This document shows, piece after piece, positions 1,545 through 29,643 of a DNA stretch of 32,000 nt. The stretch is from Nitrosococcus oceani ATCC 19707 (GTDB lineage Bacteria; Pseudomonadota; Gammaproteobacteria; Nitrosococcales; Nitrosococcaceae). Location: contig NC_007484.1 of NCBI RefSeq assembly GCF_000012805.1, positions 2,850,001-2,882,000 on the forward strand, given 5' to 3'. Position numbers and translations under genes: made by a program. Position 1 is the stretch's first letter. Each line of letters starts with the position of its first letter. Under the pieces are notes generated by a model. The model was given only the letters and a program-made list of their open reading frames with translations. It ran no database searches and was not told the origin of the DNA.

Positions 1545-3236
1545 TTATACCTCCTTGGAGCGCCGCTTCAAGATCATGATTGAGCGAATCCCAATGACGA
1601 TACCCCCGAGCAATAATCCCACGCCAAAAGCAAGCAAAGCAGGCTGAATGCGAAGTTGATCTGGTACTTTACTAATCTCGCCAAACAGATTTTCTTGATC
1701 AAAACTTGCCCATACCGGCACTTCCTTTTGATAAAATTCCTTACTAAAATAAGGTTTTAAATCAACCCCCCTACCGAGCGGCATACCCTCTTCGCCGAGA
1801 AATGACTCATAAACAATGCTGGTCACGTCTCCGCCAGGATTCATCCCATCAGTGGTAACGGCCCGCTCCGTATGATCATGCAACAACCAGATCCCTTCCC
1901 CATAGCTGTGGAAACCATCAATACTGGTATTCAGAGCAAGATCAATGCGCTGGGCGGGTCCTAGCTCATAAACATCCCGCGTGATCCATGCCTCTGGGTT
2001 ATGGGGGGCCCCATCATAAGCGGTAATGGTCATTTTATGGCCATGGCTGTGAATGTAGGCAGGATCTTGGCCCGCGTTCCCCATCCGAATCTTTACCAAC
2101 TCATTGGGTTTCACCACTACCAGCGATTCCCGCAGGGTATAGGGAAAAGAACGGCCATTAAGCAGAAAATAATTAGTTGGATTCTCAGTGATATTATAAT
2201 CACGGTTAATCGCCTTGGAGATCAACCGCGCATCATTAGCGATCTTAATCTTATCCGCCAAGGTCTTGTCAACGCTCTGATAAAGAAGATCATACTCCCG
2301 ATCATAGGTCTCTTTCACCGCTACTGAGGGATGACGTACATGCCCTCCCCCTACATTCAGGGTCTGGACCCAATTACTGGGACGATTTTCTTCCACCACC
2401 ATCAACCCTACCAACCCCATTCCAATATGGGCATGGGGCTGAACATGGCAATGGTAAAGCATGGTCCCCGCATGCCGGGGAGTCATCTCATAAGTACGGC
2501 TCTCTCCCGGCATTAAGGGCAGCTCGCTGGTCTGGGGAACCCCATCGTTCCCTTCACCCGCCGCATTCACGAAGGGGTGATCGACCCCATGAAAATGGAT
2601 CGTATGGGGAAGATAATGGGTATTCTCGAGAGTAATTTTTATGGTATCTCCCTGCTCAACGCGGATAACGGGAGAAGGCGCTCGCAGATAAGCATTAGCT
2701 TGCAAACTCTCGAAGTTAAGGGTGGACATACCGCGGGTCTTGGGGGCAAAAACCCAGAACCCAGGCTGGACACCCGGTGCAATCGAATAGGCAGGAATAG
2801 GCTCCGGAGTATCCGGCGAGAATCCGTTTAGCTCGGCCACTTCTAACCGAAGATGGATGACATCCGGATCCCCATCCCCATCGCGGTCCTCACCTTTGGT
2901 GACCGCATCCATCGCAAGCTGGGTCTCCATAATGGTGTCATGGGAAACATTGTTCGTGCCTTTGACGAATGCAGCAATATCTGCTGGGTTATCCGGGCTG
3001 CAAAAAGGTGATGCTTCCACGAGCATCCCCTCAATCACCTGACGCTCTCGCCAAACTGGATCCACATCGGGGCACATCGGCTCGATCTCCAACTCAGCAA
3101 GGTTGAAACTCTCAGTTGCTGGGGGCCGTTGGTAGGGAGCCGACCGCACTATGGAAGGGAACAAGAGAACAAAGCTCCCTAACCCTATCACAACGGCAAA
3201 GAAGGCATGACGTATATTCATCATTTGCATACACAT
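1545..3236 (-). CDS. Two-domain multicopper oxidase, T1 site in the N-terminal cupredoxin domain (type-C-like), with N-terminal signal/anchor and C-terminal TM helix
   Basis: Copper ligand motifs appear in the order HTIHFHG, YHCHVQPHAHIGMG, IHSHGH, WLLHDH. Only the first HxH-type motif pair carries the Cys..His..Met T1 set. There is a DRDGDGDPD Ca-binding-like motif in a roughly 190-aa N-terminal extension. C-terminal TM helix: ALLAFGVGLLLGGIVIGI. Confidence 0.85.
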   Translation of the reverse strand: MCMQMMNIRHAFFAVVIGLGSFVLLFPSIVRSAPYQRPPATESFNLAELEIEPMCPDVDPVWRERQVIEGMLVEASPFCSPDNPADIAAFVKGTNNVSHDTIMETQLAMDAVTKGEDRDGDGDPDVIHLRLEVAELNGFSPDTPEPIPAYSIAPGVQPGFWVFAPKTRGMSTLNFESLQANAYLRAPSPVIRVEQGDTIKITLENTHYLPHTIHFHGVDHPFVNAAGEGNDGVPQTSELPLMPGESRTYEMTPRHAGTMLYHCHVQPHAHIGMGLVGLMVVEENRPSNWVQTLNVGGGHVRHPSVAVKETYDREYDLLYQSVDKTLADKIKIANDARLISKAINRDYNITENPTNYFLLNGRSFPYTLRESLVVVKPNELVKIRMGNAGQDPAYIHSHGHKMTITAYDGAPHNPEAWITRDVYELGPAQRIDLALNTSIDGFHSYGEGIWLLHDHTERAVTTDGMNPGGDVTSIVYESFLGEEGMPLGRGVDLKPYFSKEFYQKEVPVWASFDQENLFGEISKVPDQLRIQPALLAFGVGLLLGGIVIGIRSIMILKRRSKEV

Positions 3237-3934: not shown

Positions 3935-5371
3935 TCAGCGAAACCGGCCTAGCGTTTTTTGCACAAAACCGTCCTCCCCATAACCCATGCAAACTTTCCT
4001 GTCATTCATCCGGGTTTCTAACCATACATCCCGACCCCATAGCTGATAAAGGTGGGAGAGGGTTTTCTCGGCATATTCCGCCTGTAGATCCCGTCCGTCA
4101 TGGTCATGTTTAAGGTAGAGTTGCCGGTTACGCCCGTAATCGGCATCTTCGATCCGGATGACGGGGATACTCCCCATACCTACATTTTTTAGCAAAGTTG
4201 TTTTGATCTCACGCCAATGTTCTTCATCAGAGACCTTACTAATGACCAAAGCCTCTCCTTTAGGTTGATACTCAAACATATCCATCTCGCGCATCAACTC
4301 TTCGGTTAGAAAGCGGCGCAAAAATGAAGCATCCCGATCAACTTCGCGAACCTGGAAAATTCCTTCGCGGCCTCCCTTCCGTGGCTTACCGACATGCTCC
4401 TCTTCTGCAGAGACTTGACAATGGCGGAAGATATCATGCCAAAGTTTAAAACCTAAATAGTATGGATTAATATCGCCCGGATGGGGGCGTACCACCTGGT
4501 TGTGATGAACGAGGAATTCAAGATAAAGATCTTGGGGTAAATCTATACTATTCATGAGCTTATGATGCCAATAGCTAGCCCAACCCTCGTTCATAATCTT
4601 GGTTTCAATCTGAGGGATAAAATAGCGTGCTTGTTCATGCACAATAGTAAGCAAGTCCCGCTCCCAATCGGCAAGATAAAGGTTATTATCCCGCATAAAC
4701 AGCAGAATATCCTCTTCAGGAAACAAAGGAAAACGATTCAAATCGGGCTCTACATACTCAGGCTGCTTATGCAATCTTTGATAGGGATCATGCGTAGGAT
4801 GAGCGGCAGCCACAACCTGCTCTTTCTGCTCGCTGGCACTCAATTTACGTATCGCTTGATTCCTGCTGCACTGCAAAGATAAAGCGTGGGCCGCATCAAG
4901 CACCCTTTCTGTTTTATGAAGTCCGATAGAGGGATCTTCAATATAGCCCCGTACTCGATCAGCGCGAAGTTTAAAGTTAGAAAGAGTCAATTCAGGTTGA
5001 GTATCGCGAAAGGTAAAATTATTTTTGAAAAAATCATTGTGACCATAGACATGAGCAATAGTCAGAATTTGCAAACACAAAGAATTCTCCTGCACTAAAT
5101 AGGCTAAAGCAGGATTTGAATTGATCACCATTTCATAGGGCAGCCCGCTCATCCCATGCTCGTAAAGAGTCTGAAGCTTCTCGTAGGCTTTGCCATAAGA
5201 CCAGTGAGGATAATGGGCCGGCATACCCGAGTAGGCCATATAGCCTAGCATTTGGGTATGGTCGCAAATCTCAAACTCCTGGGGAAAACAAGAAAGGCCA
5301 AATTCCTCGGCTTTTTCACGAATCTTGTCATCCCAATATTTTAGATCCTCAATCGTCCAATGACTGGCCAT
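3935..5371 (-). CDS. ycgB: SpoVR/YcgB family protein
   Basis: 478 aa with the SpoVR-like N-terminus (WTIEDLKYWDDKIREKAEEFGL..., HVYGHNDFFKNN). It is the third member of the conserved PrkA-YeaH-SpoVR triad immediately downstream. Confidence 0.9.
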   Translation of the reverse strand: MASHWTIEDLKYWDDKIREKAEEFGLSCFPQEFEICDHTQMLGYMAYSGMPAHYPHWSYGKAYEKLQTLYEHGMSGLPYEMVINSNPALAYLVQENSLCLQILTIAHVYGHNDFFKNNFTFRDTQPELTLSNFKLRADRVRGYIEDPSIGLHKTERVLDAAHALSLQCSRNQAIRKLSASEQKEQVVAAAHPTHDPYQRLHKQPEYVEPDLNRFPLFPEEDILLFMRDNNLYLADWERDLLTIVHEQARYFIPQIETKIMNEGWASYWHHKLMNSIDLPQDLYLEFLVHHNQVVRPHPGDINPYYLGFKLWHDIFRHCQVSAEEEHVGKPRKGGREGIFQVREVDRDASFLRRFLTEELMREMDMFEYQPKGEALVISKVSDEEHWREIKTTLLKNVGMGSIPVIRIEDADYGRNRQLYLKHDHDGRDLQAEYAEKTLSHLYQLWGRDVWLETRMNDRKVCMGYGEDGFVQKTLGRFR

Positions 5372-5405
5372 AACTTTTATCCCAGCCTTTCACTTTAACC
5401 AAATT

Positions 5406-6590
5406 TTACTCATCATATTTGCTGCTCTCCGACTCTCGGGACAACAGCTGCCTAAAACTAGGCCAGATATCTTCCTTACGTTGGATTAACACCGACTGGA
5501 AATTGTCCATCCGCACACTACGGAACAAATCTAGCATGGTCCCTTCATAGAAGCCCGAGGGACGTGGTTTAATTTCACCATAACCAAATAAGTTACAGAC
5601 TTGACATAGCACTTCGGCAGCTTTTAAGGTAGCGGCGTTATCACTATCAAAATTGTCGCCATCCGAGCAATGAAAAGCGTAAATATTCCACAGCGAGGGA
5701 TGATAACGATTCTGAATAATTTCTAAAGCCTTGCTATAGCCTGAAGAAATAAAGGTACCCCCCGCTTCACCTTTATGAAAAAACTCTTCCTCCGTCACTT
5801 CTCTGGCTTTAGTATGATGGGCAATAAAAACCACATCCACATTAACGTAACGGGAACGGACAAACTGGTAGAGCAAAAAGAAAAAACTCCGCGCTAGATA
5901 TTTCTTTAATGTATCCATAGAGCCAGAAGTATCCATAATACAAAATACTACCGCATTCGACTGAGGACGCATATCCTCCCGCAGCCGATGATAGCGCATA
6001 TCATCCCGATGGAAGGGGAAACGGTGCTTTGTCTCATTATCTTCAGCATCTTTATCGCTTGCTAAACGCCGTCGAATACGAGATTTAGCCGTGCGCCGCT
6101 TATCCATATGGACTCGCACGCCAACCCGGCGGAAGCCTTTTCGTTTACTGGTACGCTCCGATAACACTTCACGGAAACGTTTACGTTCCATATCTGGCAA
6201 CTCCAGGTCTTCAAGCATGATCTCGATCAGTTCTTCCAGAGTGATTTCAGTCTCATAATAATCCATGCCAGGACGATCACCCGCATGACCCGGACCGCCA
6301 TCTCCTTGGGGCACCTGGCCAACAGTTTGGCCTGGCTCCGAATCCCCTTGGCCTGTGCCTACCCCTGGCGTATTCTGTCCATAAACAAAGCGATATTCCC
6401 GGATACCTCGAATGGGAACTTTAATAATACGATCACGGCTTTGGCCAATAATTGATTCCTCAGCAACAATGTCAGCCACATTATCACGGATCGCTTTGCG
6501 GACCTTTTGCCGATGCCGCAACCGATCCTTTGCACTGCGATCAGAGCGTAAGGCATCCGATTGAGAATAAGCACGAAATACTGTGGTCAT
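5406..6590 (-). CDS. yeaH: YeaH/DUF444 family protein (vWA-like)
   Basis: 394 aa. It has a basic N-terminus (RSAKDRLRHRQKVRKAIR) and the MDTSGSM MIDAS-like motif typical of DUF444/YeaH. It sits between prkA and spoVR. Confidence 0.9.
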   Translation of the reverse strand: MTTVFRAYSQSDALRSDRSAKDRLRHRQKVRKAIRDNVADIVAEESIIGQSRDRIIKVPIRGIREYRFVYGQNTPGVGTGQGDSEPGQTVGQVPQGDGGPGHAGDRPGMDYYETEITLEELIEIMLEDLELPDMERKRFREVLSERTSKRKGFRRVGVRVHMDKRRTAKSRIRRRLASDKDAEDNETKHRFPFHRDDMRYHRLREDMRPQSNAVVFCIMDTSGSMDTLKKYLARSFFFLLYQFVRSRYVNVDVVFIAHHTKAREVTEEEFFHKGEAGGTFISSGYSKALEIIQNRYHPSLWNIYAFHCSDGDNFDSDNAATLKAAEVLCQVCNLFGYGEIKPRPSGFYEGTMLDLFRSVRMDNFQSVLIQRKEDIWPSFRQLLSRESESSKYDE

Positions 6591-6660
6591 AGCCTTTTCA
6601 TCTTTTTTCAGACACTTCTATTCCAAACCCGGTACAGGCAAGGTGCCTTCCCTTTTATCC

Positions 6661-8592
6661 CTAATCCTTCCAAAGATTATTTGCGGCATATTTCAACACC
6701 ACCTCTGCTGAGTGCTCGTTATAGCCCCGCTCCAGGAGATTCTTAACCAAATCATCGTACTTCTTGGCCTGCTCCTCATCTCGGGTACGAGATTTGGTAA
6801 TAATACGGCTTAAATCCCGTACCGAACTGGTCAATTTCTTCTCTATCGCTTCCTTTAAAGGCTCATAGGATTGATAGCTTACCTTCTCGCCACGGCGGGT
6901 AGCCGCCCAAAGAAAGGCAATCACTTCTTGCCGGAAACCATCAGCAGCGCTACCGACGATAGCGATTTGCTCTTCAACTGACTTCAGAAAATTTTCATCG
7001 GGCTGTAATTCCTCCCGCGTATCCCAATCTTTAACCCGAGTCTTGTTCACATAGGCCTCAGCATGATCCAGATAATTTTGAAATAAGGTTTCTGCCTGTT
7101 CCTCATAGGAATAGACAAAAGCTTTGGTAATTTCTTTTTCTAGGATTTCAAGATAGACCTTGTGCAAGGTATCTTGGAGCAACTCCAGATAGTGCTTCCG
7201 GGTATCGTCCGCCAGCTCCGATTGTTTGACCATCACAATCAAGGCTTCGCGGACATTGATAGGATTGATCCCCTCTTCGCTATCCGCCAAGGCATTGTCT
7301 AGGGCCTTCATAATAAAGCGGGTCGAAATGCCAAACATCCCTTCCCGTGAAGCTGCCTCCTGGAGCTCTTTAGCATTGATCTTGAGCGTTGACCCCTTCT
7401 CTACCACCTCCTCGCCATTATAAAGCCGCAGTTTGGTTATTAAGTCACATTTAGGGGTAGGCTCTAGGCGGGACAAAATCGCAAACATAGAAGCCACTTC
7501 AAGAGTGTGGGGCGCAATATGCGCCCGAAAATCAGAATGATGTAAAAGTTTCCCGTAGATCTTGATTTCTTCTGATAGGCGTAAATTATAGGGCACTTTA
7601 ACCACGACGATCCGATCGAGAATAGCCTCGTTAGTATGGTCGGCTTTGAATTTCTGCCATTCGGCCTCATTAGAATGAGCAACGATACAGGTATCCACAT
7701 ATACAGTACCGTGGCGGCCGGGAGCAGGGACAAATTTCTCCTGGGTCGCGGTAATCATGGAATGGAGATATTCCGTCTCGTTCTTAAAGACCTCAATAAA
7801 TTCCACCACGCCCCGGTTGCCCACGTTGAAAGCGCCATTTAGATCCAATACCCGAGGATCGCCTTCGGAATACAGATCCAATTTGGAGATATCCTCTGAT
7901 CCAATTAACACTGAGGTATCCTGGTTATTGGGGTCCACCGGCGGTACAACGCCAATACCCCGGCGATCCCGCTTGGAAAAATCTACCGTGATAACAGGCA
8001 CGTCTTCATAACGGCCATCAAACTCTTCTTTGAGACGAAAACGGCATACCGGGCATAAATCACCCTCAATATGCACATCCAGCATCTTTTCAAATTCCTT
8101 ACGTAAATGGCGCGGTAGGAGATGCAAGGGTTCCTCCCGCATGGGACAGCCTTCAATGGCATAAATAGGCTCCACATTCTCCAAACCCCGATGCAAGCGT
8201 TCGATAAGAGAACTCTTACCGGCCCCCACGGGACCCATCAGGTAGAGAACTTGCCGACTCTCCTCTCCATGCAGGGATGCGGAATGAAAATAACGCACCA
8301 ATTGAGCTAGAGTCCGTTCAATACCAAAGAATTCATCCTTGAAAAAAGAATATACTTTAATCGGCTCATCTCCGTAGAGGCGCTTGACATGAGGGTCATC
8401 CGCGGCATTGATATCTTCGGCCCCCTTCCGCATGATCATGTCGTAAACTCGGGAATGGGCTAACCTAGCAAGTAGGGGCTCCTTTTTGACTTTTTCTAAG
8501 TAATCAACAAACGTTCCCCGCCATTCTTGGCGCTCTCGCCTCGCCCGGTCCTTTTGAATAATTTCAGTAAATCCATTTTTTGTATCGGCCAC
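6661..8592 (-). CDS. prkA: PrkA (YeaG) family serine protein kinase
   Basis: Walker A GPVGAGKSSL and overall YeaG-like length. The ORF track starts at a TTG (8619). A GTG at 8592 is preceded by GAGGAGG with a 6-nt spacer and gives 643 aa, matching YeaG length, so I prefer 8592. Confidence 0.9.
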   Translation of the reverse strand: MADTKNGFTEIIQKDRARRERQEWRGTFVDYLEKVKKEPLLARLAHSRVYDMIMRKGAEDINAADDPHVKRLYGDEPIKVYSFFKDEFFGIERTLAQLVRYFHSASLHGEESRQVLYLMGPVGAGKSSLIERLHRGLENVEPIYAIEGCPMREEPLHLLPRHLRKEFEKMLDVHIEGDLCPVCRFRLKEEFDGRYEDVPVITVDFSKRDRRGIGVVPPVDPNNQDTSVLIGSEDISKLDLYSEGDPRVLDLNGAFNVGNRGVVEFIEVFKNETEYLHSMITATQEKFVPAPGRHGTVYVDTCIVAHSNEAEWQKFKADHTNEAILDRIVVVKVPYNLRLSEEIKIYGKLLHHSDFRAHIAPHTLEVASMFAILSRLEPTPKCDLITKLRLYNGEEVVEKGSTLKINAKELQEAASREGMFGISTRFIMKALDNALADSEEGINPINVREALIVMVKQSELADDTRKHYLELLQDTLHKVYLEILEKEITKAFVYSYEEQAETLFQNYLDHAEAYVNKTRVKDWDTREELQPDENFLKSVEEQIAIVGSAADGFRQEVIAFLWAATRRGEKVSYQSYEPLKEAIEKKLTSSVRDLSRIITKSRTRDEEQAKKYDDLVKNLLERGYNEHSAEVVLKYAANNLWKD

Positions 8593-9282
8593 ACTCCACC
8601 TCCTCACCGAAAATGCCAATTAGGACGCTACAACACCCGCTACAGTAAAGACACAACAGACCCCTTTGGAGTTCCAAGCCTCTGCTTGCAAAAAATACTA
8701 AAAGAACCTGATAAATTAAGAAATCTCTTTTGCGTTTATAAGACACAGCCATTGCCCTAAATTGTTTTTCAAAATGTTGGCAACCGTACTGAACATGCCC
8801 GCATAAACACAAGAGGCCGTACTCTCAGTATAGCCCCTAAAAAAAAATCTAAAGAGGAAAAGGAAAACAACCGTGCGTTGCCTGAAGGACTCTAGTACGC
8901 ATATTGCACCTAACTAATCAAAAGTAACGGACAGCCCCCTGCACTATCAATCGTTTGCTCCTATGGGCACCAAACCTTATTCCGCAACGAATGCTGCTGT
9001 CAGTCATTTTTAGTTTATCCCTTGCGAGATTCAGTTCAAATACATTTAAAGCTAATAAGAACGCAAACTGTCCCTACACAAACAATAATCTACCAGACCC
9101 TAATTTCAGAACCAAGGATGCTCTGTCAAGGGAAAAACTCCTTTCATCAGAAGTAATCGCAAGAAATTAACTGCTTCGGGCCGTATATCACTCTATTAAG
9201 GTTAGGAGCAAAACTTATATTTCTACTCAGTGAAGATTTCCGTACGGATGCTTATCACAAACAAATACAAAGCGAATCCGGA

Positions 9283-9305
9283 TGGGGCGAAGCGCCCCAC
9301 TTTTG
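9283..9305 (+). terminator. Rho-independent-terminator-like hairpin inside the gene-free gap
   Basis: TGGGGCG-AAG-CGCCCCA followed by CTTTTG on the + strand. No recognisable gene lies upstream on that strand, so the transcript it would end is unknown. Confidence 0.35.
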
Positions 9306-9592
9306 TAGTGAGCCCAGAACGTTTCGAAACATCCCTGGCTGCTTCTATCCTGAAATTTCCTTGGCGCTCAGCAGAGATAGTAAATCGCACACCTCCTCAA
9401 GGAACTGCAACTATAAACTGCTTATATTGCTAGATATAGGGGCGTCTCTATAGGGAAAAATATCCGGAAAGCAGCATTCACGAGAACCCAAAAGGACGAA
9501 AAACCCGCCGCCCATTTTACCGCTGTCAATGTATTTGTCCTTCTCAACTACATCGATACTTTCAGCCTGATGATACTGGAAGCCATGGTCCG

Positions 9593-9830
9593 CAGTGAGA
9601 GTACGAAGTGAAACGGCGCATCGAGCGCGAGGGCCAGCATGACTTGCGTTTCGCCAACAATTCGCGGTATATTTTTCTGTTGCCAAGAGCGCGACCTACC
9701 CTCGGTAGGAGGGGAAGTGATGCGCGTGGAGGGTGATACCCAACCGAGGGCCTTGCGCGCTAAGTCGTAGCCAACCCAAGGCACCCATTGAAGCGCGAAT
9801 TCTCCAGGCGGATGAAGTTTTATAGAAACA
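9593..9830. repeat. Structured GC-rich element, copy A (shorter, internally deleted relative of the element at 31641-32000)
   Basis: The 44-nt block 9593-9636 aligns without gaps to 31641-31684 (36/44 identical). Further shared motifs appear in the same order (TTTCGCC; AATTCGCGG/AATTCGCGAG; CCTACC..GGTAGG hairpin). No credible coding potential. Confidence 0.55.
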
Positions 9831-9984
9831 AAATCGAAATCAGCCATGGCGAAACTCCAATTCTCTGAATGCTGTCTGATGCCAGGTTTATGCAGAAAAA
9901 TTACCTGGCCCTCTGTTTACTCAAGCATTGCTGAATAATCTTGTCCCTCAACAGGATAAGACCGACATCGAAACTTCCCCAGCT

Positions 9985-24267: not shown

Positions 24268-24801
24268 ATGCAGCAGCATTTGGTGATCTCGGCGATAGGA
24301 CATGAGCAACCTGGGCTTTTAAAGGAATTAACTAGCGCCATACTGGATAGCGGTTGCAGCATCGAAGATAGCCGCATGGTCCTGCTTGGAACGAAATTTA
24401 CCATACAGCTGCTCGTCTCTGGCAGTTGGAGCGCGGTGGCTAAATTAGAAGCCATGCTACCCGGTTTAAAGCAGCGGCTTACATTAACCATACTCAGTAA
24501 ACGCACCGAAGCCCGCTCCCGCAACCGCACCCTTATGCCCTATGCGGTAGAGGCTATATCAATAAACCAACCCGGCATTATACATGAGCTAACTTATTTC
24601 TTTGCCAACCGCAATATTACTATCGAAGAACTTAGCACCCGATGTTATCCCGCGCCGCATACAGAAGCGCCTTTATTTTCGGTCAGCCTCATTATACACT
24701 TGCCCGCTGATCTATCCATTGCCGTTCTAAGAGAACAGTTTATGGAACTATGCGATAATTTAAATTTGGATGCTATCTTGGAGCCTATCCGAGGCCGCTA
24801 A
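24268..24801 (+). CDS. gcvR: Glycine cleavage system transcriptional repressor GcvR (tandem ACT domains)
   Basis: It aligns with E. coli GcvR (LVISAIGHEQPGLL..GCSIEDSRMVLLGTKFT..LVSGSW). It is divergent from dapA and followed by bcp, exactly as in E. coli. Confidence 0.85.
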   Translation: MQQHLVISAIGHEQPGLLKELTSAILDSGCSIEDSRMVLLGTKFTIQLLVSGSWSAVAKLEAMLPGLKQRLTLTILSKRTEARSRNRTLMPYAVEAISINQPGIIHELTYFFANRNITIEELSTRCYPAPHTEAPLFSVSLIIHLPADLSIAVLREQFMELCDNLNLDAILEPIRGR

Positions 24802-24823
24802 TCCCTACAATGTTAGAGATCCC

Positions 24824-25291
24824 ATGACTGAAGTAACTATAGGAAAAACGGTTCCCGATTTTGAACTTCCTGCCACTTCGGGACAAACCGTCAAGCTGTC
24901 GCAACTACAAGGCCAAAACGTGGTGCTGTACTTTTATCCTAAAGACGACACGCCAGGATGCACCCGGGAAGGGCAAGACTTCCGAGACCTCCACCCAGAA
25001 TTCAAGCGCCTTAACACCGTTATCTTTGGTATTTCCCGGGATACTCTAAAATCCCATGAAACGTTCAAAGCGCAGCAGCGTTTTCCATTCGAACTCTTAT
25101 CGGATAAGGATGCAACAGTTTGCAGACTATTTGAGGTCATCAAGCCCAAGAAAATGTTCGGCAAAGATGTCAAGGGCATAGAGCGCAGCACTTTTCTCAT
25201 CGATCAGGAAGGAATTCTGCGCGAAGAGTGGCGCAAGGTAAAAGTTGAAGATCATGCGGCGGAAGTGCTAGCAGCAACTAAAGCTCTCTAA
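24824..25291 (+). CDS. bcp: Peroxiredoxin Bcp (PrxQ-type thiol peroxidase)
   Basis: Active-site motif YFYPKDDTPGCTREG. The internal ATG at 24824 (MTEVTIGKTVPDFELP) matches Bcp N-termini. The ORF-track start at 24770 overlaps gcvR. Confidence 0.9.
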   Translation: MTEVTIGKTVPDFELPATSGQTVKLSQLQGQNVVLYFYPKDDTPGCTREGQDFRDLHPEFKRLNTVIFGISRDTLKSHETFKAQQRFPFELLSDKDATVCRLFEVIKPKKMFGKDVKGIERSTFLIDQEGILREEWRKVKVEDHAAEVLAATKAL

Positions 25292-25512: not shown

Positions 25513-25541
25513 TTGCGCTTCGCCTCAAAACACCCTATGTT
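25513..25541 (+). promoter_or_regulatory. Candidate sigma70 promoter of nrdAB
   Basis: TTGCGC (-35), an exact 17-nt spacer, then TATGTT (-10), about 90 nt upstream of the nrdA ATG. The -10 is embedded in NrdR-like box 1. Confidence 0.4.
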
Positions 25542-25577
25542 GTGTTATGTAAGTCGGTTAACCACATCTTCTTGTGT
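25530..25577 (+). promoter_or_regulatory. Tandem NrdR-box-like palindromes
   Basis: ACACCCTATGTTGTGT (25530-25545) matches 13/16 to acaCwAtATaTwGtgt. CCACATCTTCTTGTGT (25562-25577) matches 11/16. The start-to-start spacing is 32 bp, the typical phasing of paired NrdR boxes. Confidence 0.5.
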
Positions 25578-25632: not shown

Positions 25633-28600
25633 ATGAAAACGGAATCCTCTACTACTATGTCATACCCCCAGGAACAGACTCATGACCCCGAAGCCCTGGA
25701 CCCTACCGTCAGAGTCACGGCCCCTGGTCAATACCGAGTCATTCGCCGCAACGGCAAAGTCACTGGTTTTGATCCCAGTAAAATTGCCGTCGCTATGACC
25801 AAAGCCTTCCTGGCGCTAGAAGGGAACGGCGCGGCAATGAGCAAACGCATCCACCAAACGGTGGAAGTCTTGACGGAACAAGTGGTGGAAGCCTGTACCC
25901 GCCGTTTAGAGACAGGGGGCACCGTCCATATCGAAGGTATCCAAGATCAGGTGGAACTCGCTCTCATGCGAGGGGGACACCACAAAATAGCGCGAGCCTA
26001 CGTGCTCTACCGGGAAGAACGAGCCCGAGAGAGAGCCCAAACCGCAGCCAAAAATAAGAAAAAGACCATCGAACCGCCCATCCAAGTAACTTTGGCTGAC
26101 GGCCGAACTGCACCATTGGATAAAGCCCGGCTCACCCGAATTGTAGAAGAAGCTTGCCAGAATTTACCGGAAACCCAGCCCCAGGCTATTATCAACGAAA
26201 CCTTGCGTAACCTTTTTGATGGCGTCGCGGAACAAGATGTGGAAAGGGCCCTCATCATGAGCGCCCGCACCTTCATCGAAAAAGAACCCAATTACAGTTA
26301 CACCACCGCCCGTCTATTGTTAGACAGTTTGCGCCGGGAGGCGCTTTCCTTCATCCATGGCATGGAAACCCATGCCACTCAGCAGGAAATGATCGAACGC
26401 TATCCAGAATATTTTGCTGCCTATATCAGGCAAGGCGCTGAAATACAATTGATTGACAGCCGCCTTACCCAATACGATTTAACCCGACTAGGCCAAGCCT
26501 TGCGGCCGGAACGGGATTTTCAGTTCACTTATCTTGGCTTGCAAACCCTCTACGACCGTTATTTCATTCACTCCGGCGGTACTCGTTTTGAGTTGCCCCA
26601 AGCCTTTTTCATGCGAGTTGCCATGGGGCTAGCCATCAATGAAATTGAACGGGAAGAGCGGGCCATCGAGTTCTATGAACTGTTGTCCTCCTTTGACTTT
26701 ATGAGCAGCACCCCCACTTTATTTAACTCAGGCTCCTTGAGACCTCAGCTTTCCTCCTGTTATTTAACCACCGTGCCCGATGACTTGGATGGGATTTATA
26801 GCGCCATCAAGGACAATGCCCTGCTCTCCAAATATGCGGGCGGGCTCGGCAACGACTGGACTCGGGTTCGGGGAATGGGCGCTCACATCAAAGGGACCAA
26901 CGGCAAATCCCAAGGCGTAGTGCCCTTTTTAAAGGTGACCAATGATACTGCCGTGGCGGTCAATCAATGTCTTGCGCCAAACACTTTGGTACACACGGCC
27001 GAAGGAATAAAGTCCATCAAAGCCATCCAGGCAGGGGATTTAGTCTTGAGTCAATGCGGCGAGTACCGGGAAGTAACCCGCAAGTTTGCCTATAATCAGA
27101 CTGAAGCCATGGTGGAACTCAATATCAAGCACGGTATCGAGCCACTCAAAGTCACCACTGGTCACCCTTTTTGGGCACTGCGCGGCGTACCCATGGAACA
27201 ATCCAGCTACCGAACCCTGTCCTGGCTTGCCCGCGGCAAAATACAACCTGAATGGGTCGAAGCCGGAAAGTTGTCCAAAGGGGATTATGTGGCCCAAGTA
27301 ATACCGAAGGAGATAGTGCCGGTAGCTGATTTTACCGAAGACGACGCTCGCCTATACGGTATATTGCTTGGCGACGGGCACCTCTGTAAGAAGGGAGGGG
27401 AATGGGGGGTTTCCGGTAACCCTCGGCGAGACCACCACCTCCAGTTCGTACGCCATTACCTAGAAGTGCGCGGAATTCACTACTGGGAAATCAGCCGCGG
27501 CACTCGCTATGCTCAGATTCGTTGGGCCAGCGGCCGTGGTGCCGTTCGCAATGCCACCACCGGCCGCATCGTCGGCGCTGGCGCCCCTACTCTTCCATTT
27601 ACCCGCGACGATCTCTATGATCACACCGAAAACAAACGCATCCACCATCGGCTCAGTCACCTTCCCCGCCGCCAGACCCTAGCCTTGGTACAGGGACTAC
27701 TAGAAACTGACGGCGGTGTGAGTCGAAATAAGGAGATCTATTTTACTAGTACCTCATTTTTACTTGCGGAGGGGCTACGCTACCAACTATTGCGCTTAGG
27801 CGTACCTACCGCTGGCCAATACCGTGAACGCCAGCAGGGTCACAGCGGCCAGCGTAGCGATGGCAGTGAAATCCGTTTTAACGGTATCTGCCGAGCAGTG
27901 GATGTGAGAATTCCCGCCGTGTCTGAAATCGCGGAACGCCTCGGCTGCCGCGCACTCACCAAGCACAACTGGATCGAATATAATGGTTTTCTATTCACCC
28001 GCCTGCGCAGCGCACGTGATATCTCCCCCCTACCCTTCGTCTACGATCTCAAAGTCGAAGGTGATCCAAGCTATATGACCACTACAGCCCTAGTTCACAA
28101 CGGTGGCAAGCGCAAGGGCGCGGTCTGCGCCTATCTGGAAACCTGGCACATCGATATCGAAGAATTCCTTGAGCTGCGCAAAAATACCGGTGACGATCGC
28201 CGCCGTACCCACGACATGAATACCGCTAACTGGGTGCCGGACCTGTTTATGAAACGGGTAGCTGAAGACGGCGGCTGGACTTTGTTTTCCCCCGACGAAA
28301 CCCCGGATCTCCATGACTTGGTAGGCCAAGCTTTTGAAGCAGCCTATCTTGGCTATGAGGACAAGGCTAGCCGTGGCGAAATCAAGAATTTTAAAAAGCG
28401 GCGTGCCGTGGATCTATGGCGCAAAATGCTCTCCATGCTATTCGAGACAGGACATCCTTGGATCGCCTTTAAAGACCCCTGTAATCTGCGTTCCCCCCAG
28501 CAGCATGCGGGCGTGGTCCATTCCTCAAATTTATGTACCGAAATTACTCTGAATACCTCCGATGATGAAATCGCAGTATGCAATCTAGGCTCTATCAACC

Positions 28601-29643
28601 TCCCTCAACATCTGGATGAAGACGGTCTTAACCTGCCTAAATTGGAGAAAACCATCACCACTGCCATGCGCATGCTGGATAATGTCATCGATTACAACTA
28701 TTACAGCGTACCCACGGCACGGCGCTCCAACCTGCGCCATCGGCCCGTCGGCCTGGGCCTCATGGGGTTTCAGGACGCCCTTTATAAACGCCGTATCCCC
28801 TATGCCTCGGAAGCCGCCGTGGAGTTCGCCGACCACTCCATGGAGGCAATCAGTTACTATGCCATCAAGGCTTCCAGCAACCTCGCCGCAGAACGGGGCA
28901 GTTACCATACTTTCGAAGGTTCCCTCTGGAGCCAGGGACTTCTGCCCATCGATTCCATCAGCTTGCTCGAAGAAAGTCGTGGCAGTTACTTCCAGCAAGA
29001 CCGTTCCCACACACTGGACTGGGACAGCCTGCGGGAACAGGTCAAAACAGTGGGTATGCGTAATTCCAATTGCATGGCCATCGCCCCCACTGCGACGATT
29101 TCTAATATCTGCGGCGTCAGCCAGTCTATTGAGCCGACTTACCAAAATCTGTTCGTGAAATCCAACCTCTCAGGCGAGTTTACGGTGATTAACCCCTACT
29201 TGGTCCAGGATCTGAAAGCCCAGAACTTATGGGATGAGGTCATGGTCAACGACCTCAAATACTTTGATGGTAGCGCCCAGCCCATTGACCGCATACCGGA
29301 GGAACTCAAAACCCTCTATGCCACCGCCTTCGAGATCGATCCCCGCTGGCTGGTGGAGGCGGCCTCCCGCCGCCAAAAGTGGCTTGATCAGGCTCAAAGC
29401 CTCAACCTTTATATGGCCGAACCCAACGGTAAAAAGCTTGATAACCTCTATAAGCTCGCCTGGGTGCGGGGCCTCAAAACCACTTATTATTTACGCTCCC
29501 TGGGCGCTACCCATGTGGAGAAGAGCACCATGACCTCGGACCAGGCGAACAAGCTTAATGCCGTCCAATCGGGCTATATTCAGAAATCGGAAGCGCCGCA
29601 AGCTTGTTCCGTCCAGGACCCGGACTGCGAAGCCTGTCAATAG
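25633..29643 (+). CDS. nrdA: Class Ia ribonucleotide reductase alpha subunit precursor (two N-terminal ATP-cone-like regions) interrupted in frame by an intein
   Basis: ATP cone VIRRNGKVTGFDPSKI, catalytic SNLCTEI, and the C-terminal CEACQ tail. 1336 aa total. Removing residues 446-823 leaves 958 aa, the length of the pseudomonad-type NrdA. Confidence 0.95.
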   Translation: MKTESSTTMSYPQEQTHDPEALDPTVRVTAPGQYRVIRRNGKVTGFDPSKIAVAMTKAFLALEGNGAAMSKRIHQTVEVLTEQVVEACTRRLETGGTVHIEGIQDQVELALMRGGHHKIARAYVLYREERARERAQTAAKNKKKTIEPPIQVTLADGRTAPLDKARLTRIVEEACQNLPETQPQAIINETLRNLFDGVAEQDVERALIMSARTFIEKEPNYSYTTARLLLDSLRREALSFIHGMETHATQQEMIERYPEYFAAYIRQGAEIQLIDSRLTQYDLTRLGQALRPERDFQFTYLGLQTLYDRYFIHSGGTRFELPQAFFMRVAMGLAINEIEREERAIEFYELLSSFDFMSSTPTLFNSGSLRPQLSSCYLTTVPDDLDGIYSAIKDNALLSKYAGGLGNDWTRVRGMGAHIKGTNGKSQGVVPFLKVTNDTAVAVNQCLAPNTLVHTAEGIKSIKAIQAGDLVLSQCGEYREVTRKFAYNQTEAMVELNIKHGIEPLKVTTGHPFWALRGVPMEQSSYRTLSWLARGKIQPEWVEAGKLSKGDYVAQVIPKEIVPVADFTEDDARLYGILLGDGHLCKKGGEWGVSGNPRRDHHLQFVRHYLEVRGIHYWEISRGTRYAQIRWASGRGAVRNATTGRIVGAGAPTLPFTRDDLYDHTENKRIHHRLSHLPRRQTLALVQGLLETDGGVSRNKEIYFTSTSFLLAEGLRYQLLRLGVPTAGQYRERQQGHSGQRSDGSEIRFNGICRAVDVRIPAVSEIAERLGCRALTKHNWIEYNGFLFTRLRSARDISPLPFVYDLKVEGDPSYMTTTALVHNGGKRKGAVCAYLETWHIDIEEFLELRKNTGDDRRRTHDMNTANWVPDLFMKRVAEDGGWTLFSPDETPDLHDLVGQAFEAAYLGYEDKASRGEIKNFKKRRAVDLWRKMLSMLFETGHPWIAFKDPCNLRSPQQHAGVVHSSNLCTEITLNTSDDEIAVCNLGSINLPQHLDEDGLNLPKLEKTITTAMRMLDNVIDYNYYSVPTARRSNLRHRPVGLGLMGFQDALYKRRIPYASEAAVEFADHSMEAISYYAIKASSNLAAERGSYHTFEGSLWSQGLLPIDSISLLEESRGSYFQQDRSHTLDWDSLREQVKTVGMRNSNCMAIAPTATISNICGVSQSIEPTYQNLFVKSNLSGEFTVINPYLVQDLKAQNLWDEVMVNDLKYFDGSAQPIDRIPEELKTLYATAFEIDPRWLVEAASRRQKWLDQAQSLNLYMAEPNGKKLDNLYKLAWVRGLKTTYYLRSLGATHVEKSTMTSDQANKLNAVQSGYIQKSEAPQACSVQDPDCEACQ
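26968..28101 (+). mobile_element. Intein (378 aa) with LAGLIDADG homing-endonuclease domain, inserted in the conserved NQ|GGKRKGA motif of NrdA
   Basis: Block A CLAPNTLVHTAEG, block B VTTGHPFW. Two dodecapeptide motifs, LYGILLGDGHL (about 27349-27390) and LVQGLLETDGGVS (about 27682-27720). Block F VYDLKVEGDPSY and terminal LVHN. The flanking extein sequence is contiguous once the element is removed. Confidence 0.9.

Follow-up and report, generated by a model that had tools for sequence, protein, structure and literature searches.

Inteins Followed by an Invariant Glycine at the Loop 2 Site of Ribonucleotide Reductase, a Family Represented in Nitrosococcus oceani

An Intein Followed by Glycine in NrdA

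We analyzed a stretch of 32,000 nucleotides from the genome of Nitrosococcus oceani ATCC 19707 (NC_007484.1, positions 2,850,001 to 2,882,000; hereafter, the window), in which nrdA, the gene encoding the alpha subunit of class Ia ribonucleotide reductase (RNR), contains an intein. This element is a full-size, endonuclease-bearing intein of the class 1 type, and it belongs to a large family in which the C-extein always begins with glycine. The presence of Cys, Ser, or Thr at this position (+1) has been stated as a defining rule of inteins (PMC2814812). Splicing without a side-chain nucleophile at +1 is the best explanation for the Gly+1 family, and we regard it as probable.

The intein carried the features expected of class 1, including a HINT fold with blocks A, B, F, and G, Cys1, the TxxH motif of block B, the Asp of block F, and the terminal His-Asn (Table 1). 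It is also an in-frame insert at a conserved site whose excision restores the host sequence. The +1 nucleophile is the one feature that it lacks, with Gly at this position in all 85 loci examined. An initial annotation, made from the sequence alone, had described the two junctions, Cys1, block B, His-Asn, both LAGLIDADG motifs, and the GGT codon at 28102-28104, and reading of the sequence confirmed all of them. Its claim of a precise insertion also held, because in silico removal of residues 446-823 gave a junction stretch identical to that of the intein-free NrdA of Pseudomonas aeruginosa (PDB 5IM3). The alignment with 5IM3 placed the C-junction where it had been annotated, with no shift toward Ser, Thr, or Cys. 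A shifted junction beside one of these residues was thus ruled out, since the spliced sequence matches 5IM3 exactly. The first nucleophilic residue of the C-extein is Cys+9, with no Cys, Ser, or Thr before it. Based on alignment offsets, the insertion point corresponds to Q294/G295 of the Escherichia coli enzyme (a slash marks a junction throughout). This point lies in specificity loop 2, two residues of which, Q294 and R298, are in contact with the substrate (bioRxiv 10.1101/2021.07.31.454598).

The intein scored 18 bits against Pfam PF14890 (Intein_splicing), below the cutoff of 35.8, and its matches to Hint_2 and PT-HINT were both under cutoff. When the intein and 10 flanking residues on either side were modeled with AlphaFold2, the mean predicted local distance difference test score (pLDDT) was 91.6. 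In a Foldseek search, the model matched TliVMA (7QSU, the best match, E = 1e-18), PI-SceI, and PI-PfuI with E = 1e-18 to 1e-13 and template modeling (TM) scores of about 0.55-0.68. Its endonuclease domain matched the fold of PI-SceI, TliVMA, and I-DmoI and formed the two-motif pseudo-dimer. Judged from the model, there is nothing unusual in the fold of this intein.

Extent and Conservation of the Gly+1 Family

A protein database search with the intein returned 69 homologues, all of them fragments, some of which lay on megabase contigs. The longest matches in the protein collection were 658 aa with the intein as query and 366 aa in the search for intein-free homologues. The 1336-aa protein of the window was itself absent from this collection, and full-length relatives were found in the representative library and in genome loci. 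A scan of one genome per species gave 355 related stretches; 80 loci were retrieved, of which 73 complete copies were used for residue counts.

All 80 retrieved loci read NQ/C...HN/GGKRKG, and every junction-spanning metagenomic fragment among the 69 protein homologues read HN/GGK. In addition, five of five viral loci, on IMG/VR contigs including a giant-virus metagenome-assembled genome (MAG), had Gly+1 in intact copies. Residues Q-1, C1, T63, H66, P67, D360, H377, N378, G+1, and G+2 were invariant in the 73 complete copies, and the endonuclease residues D136 and D248 were present in 73 and 72 of them, respectively. The +1 codon of these copies was GGC (58), GGT (10), GGA (3), or GGG (2). Sixty-eight of the 73 codons are a single substitution away from Ser or Cys, and this change has been made in none. 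The initial annotation had treated the missing nucleophile as a peculiarity of one gene, a view that does not survive the invariance of Gly+1 across a large family whose Ser+1 relatives share the insertion site. Its reading of the codon as a real Gly was borne out in every genome locus, viral locus, and junction-spanning fragment. A sequencing or assembly error, or a recent mutation, at 28102-28104 that hides a true AGT or TGT is ruled out, as 85 independent loci and the fragments have Gly, written in four different codons.

The hosts of the Gly+1 family comprise Gamma- and Betaproteobacteria, Actinobacteria, MAGs of Chlamydiae, and viruses. Cultured hosts included Halomonas, Chromohalobacter, Azotobacter vinelandii, Azorhizophilus, Thiothrix, Thiolinea, Thiofilum, and Fulvimonas; actinobacterial hosts included Kibdelosporangium, Murinocardiopsis, Actinorugispora, and Marinitenerispora; and MAG hosts included Burkholderiales, Usitatibacter, and Chlamydiae. 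Complete genomes with the element include CP059265, OZ220717, and OZ220680. The family occurs in at least 80 host species and possibly in about 350. In A. vinelandii NBRC 13581 (locus L036), the intein was 65% identical to that of the window over all 378 residues, with the N-junction NQ/CFAPET, the same site, and Gly+1.

A phage origin was considered and rejected, because no close copy was found in 50,697 phage records, in which the best matches were inteins of about 25% identity in other genes. The five Gly+1 copies in viral RNRs of IMG/VR stand as a counterpoint to this absence. Two giant-virus-type RNR alpha subunits of IMG/VR (L086, from GVMAG-S-3300010158-137, and L087) had the junctions ARYVDQ/...HN/GGGRRNGSF, about 30% identity, Gly+1, and a block B reading TPEHQ without Pro.

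Relatives at the Loop 2 Site

An exhaustive profile search yielded 7133 matches, including roughly 1500 at E <= 1e-10 and 134 at E <= 1e-30, and 78 sequences with both junctions were aligned and placed in a rough neighbor-joining tree. Full-length relatives occurred in many RNR alpha subfamilies, all at the [ND]Q/ site. The +1 residue was Gly in 59 of the aligned sequences (GGKRKG, GGGKRKG, GGNKRPG, and similar) and Ser in the other 19 (SGKRNG, SGRRKG). In the tree, the Ser+1 sequences formed one main clade and a separate pair, and Gly+1 was distributed across several deep clades, indicating that the nucleophile-free state is old. Both the Ser+1 sequences and the more distant relatives with Gly+1 exceed the threshold of Pfam Intein_splicing (PF14890). 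This result indicates that the family is an intein family by homology and that splicing is its ancestral business.

The Ser+1 inteins reside in other RNR alpha subfamilies (e.g., P0104, P0111, and P0092), in eukaryote- or virus-like class I RNRs. They are homologous to the window intein over the full length, with the same site ([ND]Q/C...HN/) and the same architecture. They differ in a C-extein that begins SG[KR]R, in agreement with the canonical rule, and in a block B His that is followed by Gln, Asp, or Glu and never by Pro. In the host subfamily of the Ser+1 inteins, homologues without an intein had GG at the site in 107 cases, SG in 6, SS in 1, and CG in 1, showing that Ser is tolerated by the enzyme at this site but is rare. 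The exceptions were the intein-free RNR alpha fragments P0223, P0225, P0226, P0240, P0277, and P0280 (SG), P0209 (SS), and P0271 (CG). These NQ/SG, NQ/SS, and NQ/CG fragments may mark sites from which an intein was precisely lost, or they may be target alleles already suited to insertion.

The alignment column that best separated Gly+1 from Ser+1 sequences was the residue after the block B His, which was Pro in 54 of 59 Gly+1 sequences and in 0 of 19 Ser+1 sequences, including the separate pair. Among the database representatives alone, His-Pro was found in 39 of 44 Gly+1 sequences. From this co-variation, the block B His-Pro is suggestive of an adaptation to nucleophile-free splicing, although it is not proof of one.

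Second inteins elsewhere in the same NrdA proteins obey the +1 rule, with Cys or Thr. In L047 (Thiofilum flexile; open reading frame (ORF) 4644-9837), the second intein read IAV/C...VVHN/CNLGS, with Cys at +1. In L049, L060, L063, and L077 (Usitatibacter MAGs) and L071 (a Lysobacter MAG), it read SSNLC/C...[KR]N/TEITL, with Thr at +1. The SSNLC-site inteins lie directly 3' of the thiyl-radical Cys and end in Lys-Asn or Arg-Asn, not His-Asn. Within the wider family, P0118 had Ser1 and GSKRKG after the intein, P0173 ended in Lys-Asn, and P0185 had EKRNG directly after His-Asn, with GG apparently missing.

Selection, Intactness, and Mobility

Ratios of nonsynonymous to synonymous substitution rates (dN/dS) were computed from pairs with usable divergence, with short flanks of 100 codons each. 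Median dN/dS values were 0.05 for the N-extein flank, 0.12 for HINT-N, 0.14 for the endonuclease domain, 0.22 for HINT-C, and 0.15 for the C-extein flank. The intein is therefore under purifying selection (dN/dS 0.12-0.22), like the flanking enzyme.

Synonymous divergence (dS) of intein and flanks was discordant in both directions. In three species of Halomonas, the dS of the intein was 0.03-0.09 versus 0.26-0.40 for the flanks, and in several Burkholderiales pairs it was 0.7-0.8 versus 0.26-0.30. Together with the patchy distribution of hosts across phyla, this pattern fits active homing, which would be unsustainable for a lethal insert. The intein family is apparently still mobile, as such dS values are expected from transfer or replacement by homing. 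Additionally, the dN/dS of 0.14 for the endonuclease domain, the dS discordance, and the patchy distribution are indirect signs that the predicted endonuclease may cleave the empty allele site-specifically and promote homing.

Reference genomes contained intact nrdA ORFs of 1300-1450 aa, and the ORFs were unbroken in nearly all loci. Frameshifted nrdA genes were found in L001 (ERZ25039476), L002 (ERZ25039522), and L053 (MFD00008 bin), which are long-read metagenome assemblies; in L001, nrdB and several neighboring genes were broken as well. We rejected a pseudogene interpretation of the fragment-only homologues, because these error-prone long-read assemblies also split nrdB and unrelated neighbors.

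Evidence for Function from Azotobacter

An intein spanning aa 442-800 has been reported in NrdA of Azotobacter chroococcum NCIMB 8003, with conservation in Avin_33290 of A. vinelandii DJ (Robson et al. 2015, PMC4465626). These inteins belong to the same family as that of the window, with the same insertion site and Gly+1; the authors called the element an ordinary LAGLIDADG intein and did not mention the missing nucleophile. In the same work, nrdAB, set against the class II gene nrdJ, was the only B12-independent RNR named, and A. vinelandii DJ was described as lacking corrin-ring synthesis (PMC4465626). In a transposon sequencing (Tn-seq) study of strain DJ, the recipe of Burk's medium used for growth lists neither cobalamin nor cobalt; 12 of the 19 TA sites of nrdJ (Avin_00810) carried insertions, and fitness was about 1.0 in every condition (Knutson and Barney 2026, PMC12811062). 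The dispensability of nrdJ on B12-free medium and the lack of corrin synthesis together indicate that the intein-bearing NrdAB supplies deoxyribonucleoside triphosphates (dNTPs) in A. vinelandii. We infer that this NrdAB is active and is a source of dNTPs in that organism.

Proposed Route of Splicing and Alternative Explanations

In the proposed route, Cys1 would form an N-terminal thioester with the help of the Thr and His of block B. Asn378 would cyclize with the help of His377, releasing the C-extein with an unhindered Gly alpha-amine. Kept beside the thioester by the HINT fold, this amine would attack the thioester directly to form a Gln-Gly peptide bond, so that the branched (thio)ester intermediate would be bypassed and mature NrdA (about 107 kDa) with the native QGGKRKGA loop would be produced. 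The sequence of these steps is inferred, as is an outcome of ligation instead of cleavage alone. A precedent from bacterial intein-like (BIL) domains had already been named in the initial annotation, and it is described in the literature. Type A BILs have a His-Asn end without a +1 nucleophile and can splice; in the route proposed for them, an N-terminal thioester forms, Asn cyclization cleaves the C-terminal junction, and the amine released in this way attacks the thioester (reviewed by Mills, Johnson and Perler, PMC4031507). By analogy, Gly would offer the least hindered amine available, and aminolysis would give a native Gln-Gly bond.

Aminolysis is the best supported reading in view of the family's age, wide distribution, purifying selection, and apparent mobility, and in view of the Azotobacter member and the type A BIL precedent. 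A fuller claim, which we advance tentatively and consider nearly balanced, is that a large clade of inteins with endonucleases, ancient yet mobile to this day, ligates efficiently by direct aminolysis at Gln-Gly. This clade would have colonized the invariant QGG motif of loop 2, a target without Cys, Ser, or Thr, and the Ser+1 sisters and the co-varying His-Pro(-Phe) would mark its adaptation.

Several points weigh against splicing by this route. The literature searched contained no splicing experiment on any member of the family, and the Azotobacter argument presupposes a genome that contains no additional RNR. Mutation of +1 to Ala or Gly normally abolishes splicing of canonical inteins. The association of His-Pro with Gly+1 is confounded by phylogeny and offers few independent contrasts, since the Ser+1 sequences are one main clade and one pair. 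His-Pro is also not exclusive, as the canonical Cys+1 intein of L047 has HPF, and the giant-virus Gly+1 members have HQ instead of HP; both cases make His-Pro less specific as a sign that splicing proceeds without a nucleophile. Lastly, BIL domains yield mostly cleavage products (PMC4031507, PMC7664689).

The initial annotation had left three readings unranked, i.e., non-canonical splicing, cleavage only, and a non-functional nrdA. Non-canonical splicing now has the best support, and the evidence contradicts a non-functional gene. Cleavage only, which we consider unlikely, would combine thioester hydrolysis with Asn cyclization and no ligation, and the NrdA pieces of about 50 and 57 kDa would stay associated in the barrel as a nicked two-piece enzyme. 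This outcome depends on the very catalytic residues that splicing uses, whose conservation is hence to be expected under either reading, and it agrees with the tendency of BIL domains and +1-mutant inteins to cleave. The NrdA of Aeromonas phage Aeh1 provides a model for it, as an RNR alpha subunit that can be fully active in two pieces (PMC3045599). However, the Aeh1 gene was split when a free-standing endonuclease gene inserted at another position, between two barrel strands, and the enzyme depends on dedicated, acquired tail sequences that are essential for activity (PMC3045599). A nick at Q294/G295 would fall in loop 2, which reads the effector and contacts the substrate, and this is an unpromising place for one. 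Moreover, none of the approximately 85 loci was drifting toward a genuinely split gene, and the Ser+1 sisters at the same site indicate that the host enzyme needs the ligated product.

Two further explanations have less in their favor. Another unrecognized nucleophile or helper, such as a host factor or transfer to Cys+9 followed by a long-range S-to-N shift, is highly unlikely. Cys+9 occurs in 72 of 73 family members, but it is also found in the intein-free P. aeruginosa enzyme and is hence an extein feature; it is replaced by Phe in family member L026 and by Ala, Ile, or Thr in distant Gly+1 relatives. We therefore rejected Cys+9 as a surrogate nucleophile. A class 3 mechanism was likewise rejected, because the WCT motif is absent and position 4 of block F is Asp. 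The least credible of these explanations is that the intein is unremovable and nrdA is non-functional or decaying, with another RNR supplying dNTPs; in its favor, class II nrdJ occurs in Azotobacter as well and probably in many further hosts. Here and in almost every relative, however, the ORF is unbroken, and dN/dS is 0.05-0.15 in the exteins and 0.12-0.22 in the intein. Gly+1 is kept through synonymous codons and across deeply diverged clades, nrdB is intact, and NrdR-like boxes are present. In addition, nrdJ was dispensable in A. vinelandii on B12-free medium in the Tn-seq study.

Comparison with Known Inteins and Intein-Like Elements

The window element would act like a type A BIL yet is not one, and it resembles a class 1 intein yet lacks the +1 nucleophile. 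The best PDB sequence match for both the window HINT domain and the family profile was 2LWY, a match that is weak (E = 7e-4 and 4e-4) and covers the N-terminal 70 residues alone. This structure represents the type A BIL of Clostridium thermocellum (Dassa 2004 and Aranko 2013, as summarized in PMC4031507), a domain studied for ligation without nucleophilic side chains, which in that summary shares the HINT domain, Cys1, His-Asn, and the lack of a +1 nucleophile with the window element. Block B reads T-F-D-H-P-F-Y in 2LWY versus T-T-G-H-P-F-W in the window, and the two have T-x-x-H-P-F-Y/W and VEAGKL..GD in common. Of the features of type A BILs, the window element has His-Asn without a +1 nucleophile and lacks both the variable-region location and the small endonuclease-free domain. 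BILs are about 130-160 aa without an endonuclease, whereas the window element has 378 aa and a conserved LAGLIDADG endonuclease. BILs are found in variable regions of non-conserved proteins (PMC2814812), whereas the window element lies in the invariant QGG site of loop 2 in an essential RNR. Its full-length homologues are inteins, and they include Ser+1 inteins.

PI-SceI (1VDE/1EF0), TliVMA (7QSU), and PI-PfuI (Pfu RIR1-1, 1DQ3, an RNR intein) share the two-domain fold, Cys1, TxxH, the block F Asp, and His-Asn with the window element; all of them have Cys, Ser, or Thr at +1, unlike the Gly of the window. An intein-like element of Magnetospirillum magnetotacticum has a non-nucleophilic Tyr at +1 and serves as a warning that a missing nucleophile can mean no splicing; it stands alone, in contrast to the large family described here, which is conserved within an essential gene (Southworth, Yin and Perler 2004, via PMC4031507). 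An InBase-derived table contained no entry at this NrdA insertion site. The Azotobacter element presumably appears in InBase as 'Avin RIR1 BIL', a label found neither in the literature searched nor in that table. The literature searched contained no report of how large the family is, that Gly+1 is invariant in it, or that Ser+1 sister lineages exist, and no splicing test.

The nrdA Operon and Its Surroundings

The nrdA product scored 1726 bits against the NCBIfam equivalog PRK07207 (cutoff 965). A Pfam scan identified ATP-cone, Ribonuc_red_lgN, and Ribonuc_red_lgC, with the barrel match to Ribonuc_red_lgC in two stretches. The equivalog score, the ATP-cone, the SSNLCTEI and AVCNLGS motifs, and the adjacent nrdB place it in class Ia NrdA of the PRK07207 type. 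nrdB was identified by its position, by R2 motifs in the translation, and by PF00268 matches of the equivalent gene in L001 and L002. The GC content of the intein (0.547) and that of its third codon positions (0.566) match those of the host gene in the window.

Two NrdR-box-like 16-mers, found by pattern matching, lie about 55-100 bp 5' of the nrdA start codon with a spacing of 32 bp. We take them to be a candidate tandem NrdR operator, from their resemblance to the NrdR-box consensus. If so, the intein-bearing operon would be under normal RNR regulation.

Table 1. Features of the intein-bearing nrdA locus in the window
Feature	Position	Strand	Description
NrdR-box-like 16-mers (putative)	25530..25577	+	ACACCCTATGTTGTGT at 25530-45 and CCACATCTTCTTGTGT at 25562-77; sequence reading, pattern match
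nrdA, class Ia RNR alpha subunit precursor	25633..29643	+	Uninterrupted ORF, 1336 aa
N-extein, 445 aa	25633..26967	+	Two ATP-cone regions, all-alpha domain, first part of barrel; C-terminal end ...AVAVNQ
Last residue of N-extein			Gln, E. coli Q294 (loop 2), numbering via alignment offsets
Intein, 378 residues (446-823 of precursor)	26968..28101	+	Between the two halves of NrdA
N-junction	26968-70		AVAVNQ/CLAPNT; Cys1 is TGT
HINT-N half, residues 1-115	26968..27312	+	Cys1; block B T63-T-G-H66-P67 at 27154-68; strands of the AlphaFold2 model
Block B helper residues			T63 at 27154-56; H66 at 27163-65
LAGLIDADG homing-endonuclease domain, residues about 116-330	27313..27957	+	Pfam PF14528
LAGLIDADG motif 1			LYGILLGDGHL; D136 at 27373-75
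LAGLIDADG motif 2			LVQGLLETDGGV; D248 at 27709-11
HINT-C half, residues 331-378	27958..28101	+	Block F FVYDLKVEGD (D360 at 28045-47); block G TALVHN (H377, N378 at 28096-101)
C-junction			His CAC 28096-98, Asn AAC 28099-101, then Gly GGT 28102-04
+1 codon	28102..28104	+	GGT, Gly, E. coli G295; canonical inteins require Cys, Ser, or Thr
C-extein, 513 aa	28102..29640	+	Remainder of loop 2 (GGKRKGA), barrel with SSNLCTEI (thiyl-radical Cys) and AVCNLGS, C-terminal tail
Intein-free (empty) target site			...GCGGTCAATCAA/GGTGGCAAGCGC...
nrdB, small subunit, 417 aa	29708..30961	+	Intact; 65 bp 3' of nrdA

No further RNR gene was present within the 32 kb window. Directly 5' of nrdA, ORFs resembling dapA, a small regulator, and a peroxiredoxin were assigned by eye from their translations. 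The ORFs at 24268-24801 and 24770-25291 (both on the + strand), also 5' of nrdA, share 32 nt that are read in different frames, and translation of the second may actually begin further 3'. The window also contained a gene trio of prkA, DUF444 (yeaH-like), and a spoVR-like gene at 3935-8619 (- strand), and a multicopper-oxidase-like ORF at 1545-3236. The remaining genes were ordinary housekeeping genes, including those resembling leuA and an acetolactate-synthase-like thiamine pyrophosphate (TPP) enzyme.

Implications

Members of this family behave as true mobile inteins, with a conserved site in an essential enzyme, an endonuclease that looks active from its sequence, and strong purifying selection, yet the next residue is always Gly. 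The +1 requirement is the main practical limit on the use of inteins in protein engineering, because it leaves a scar residue. If ligation does occur, the family would provide a natural scaffold for scarless protein ligation at glycine. The Ser+1 and Gly+1 sisters at one site would serve as a natural experiment for identifying the residues that make the side-chain nucleophile dispensable. As the insert lies in the substrate-specificity loop, slow or conditional splicing would gate the dNTP supply of the host. Inteins would then not be bound in general to insertion sites followed by Cys, Ser, or Thr, and splicing without a nucleophile would be a working strategy of mobile inteins, not confined to the small BILs, with more sites open to invasion.

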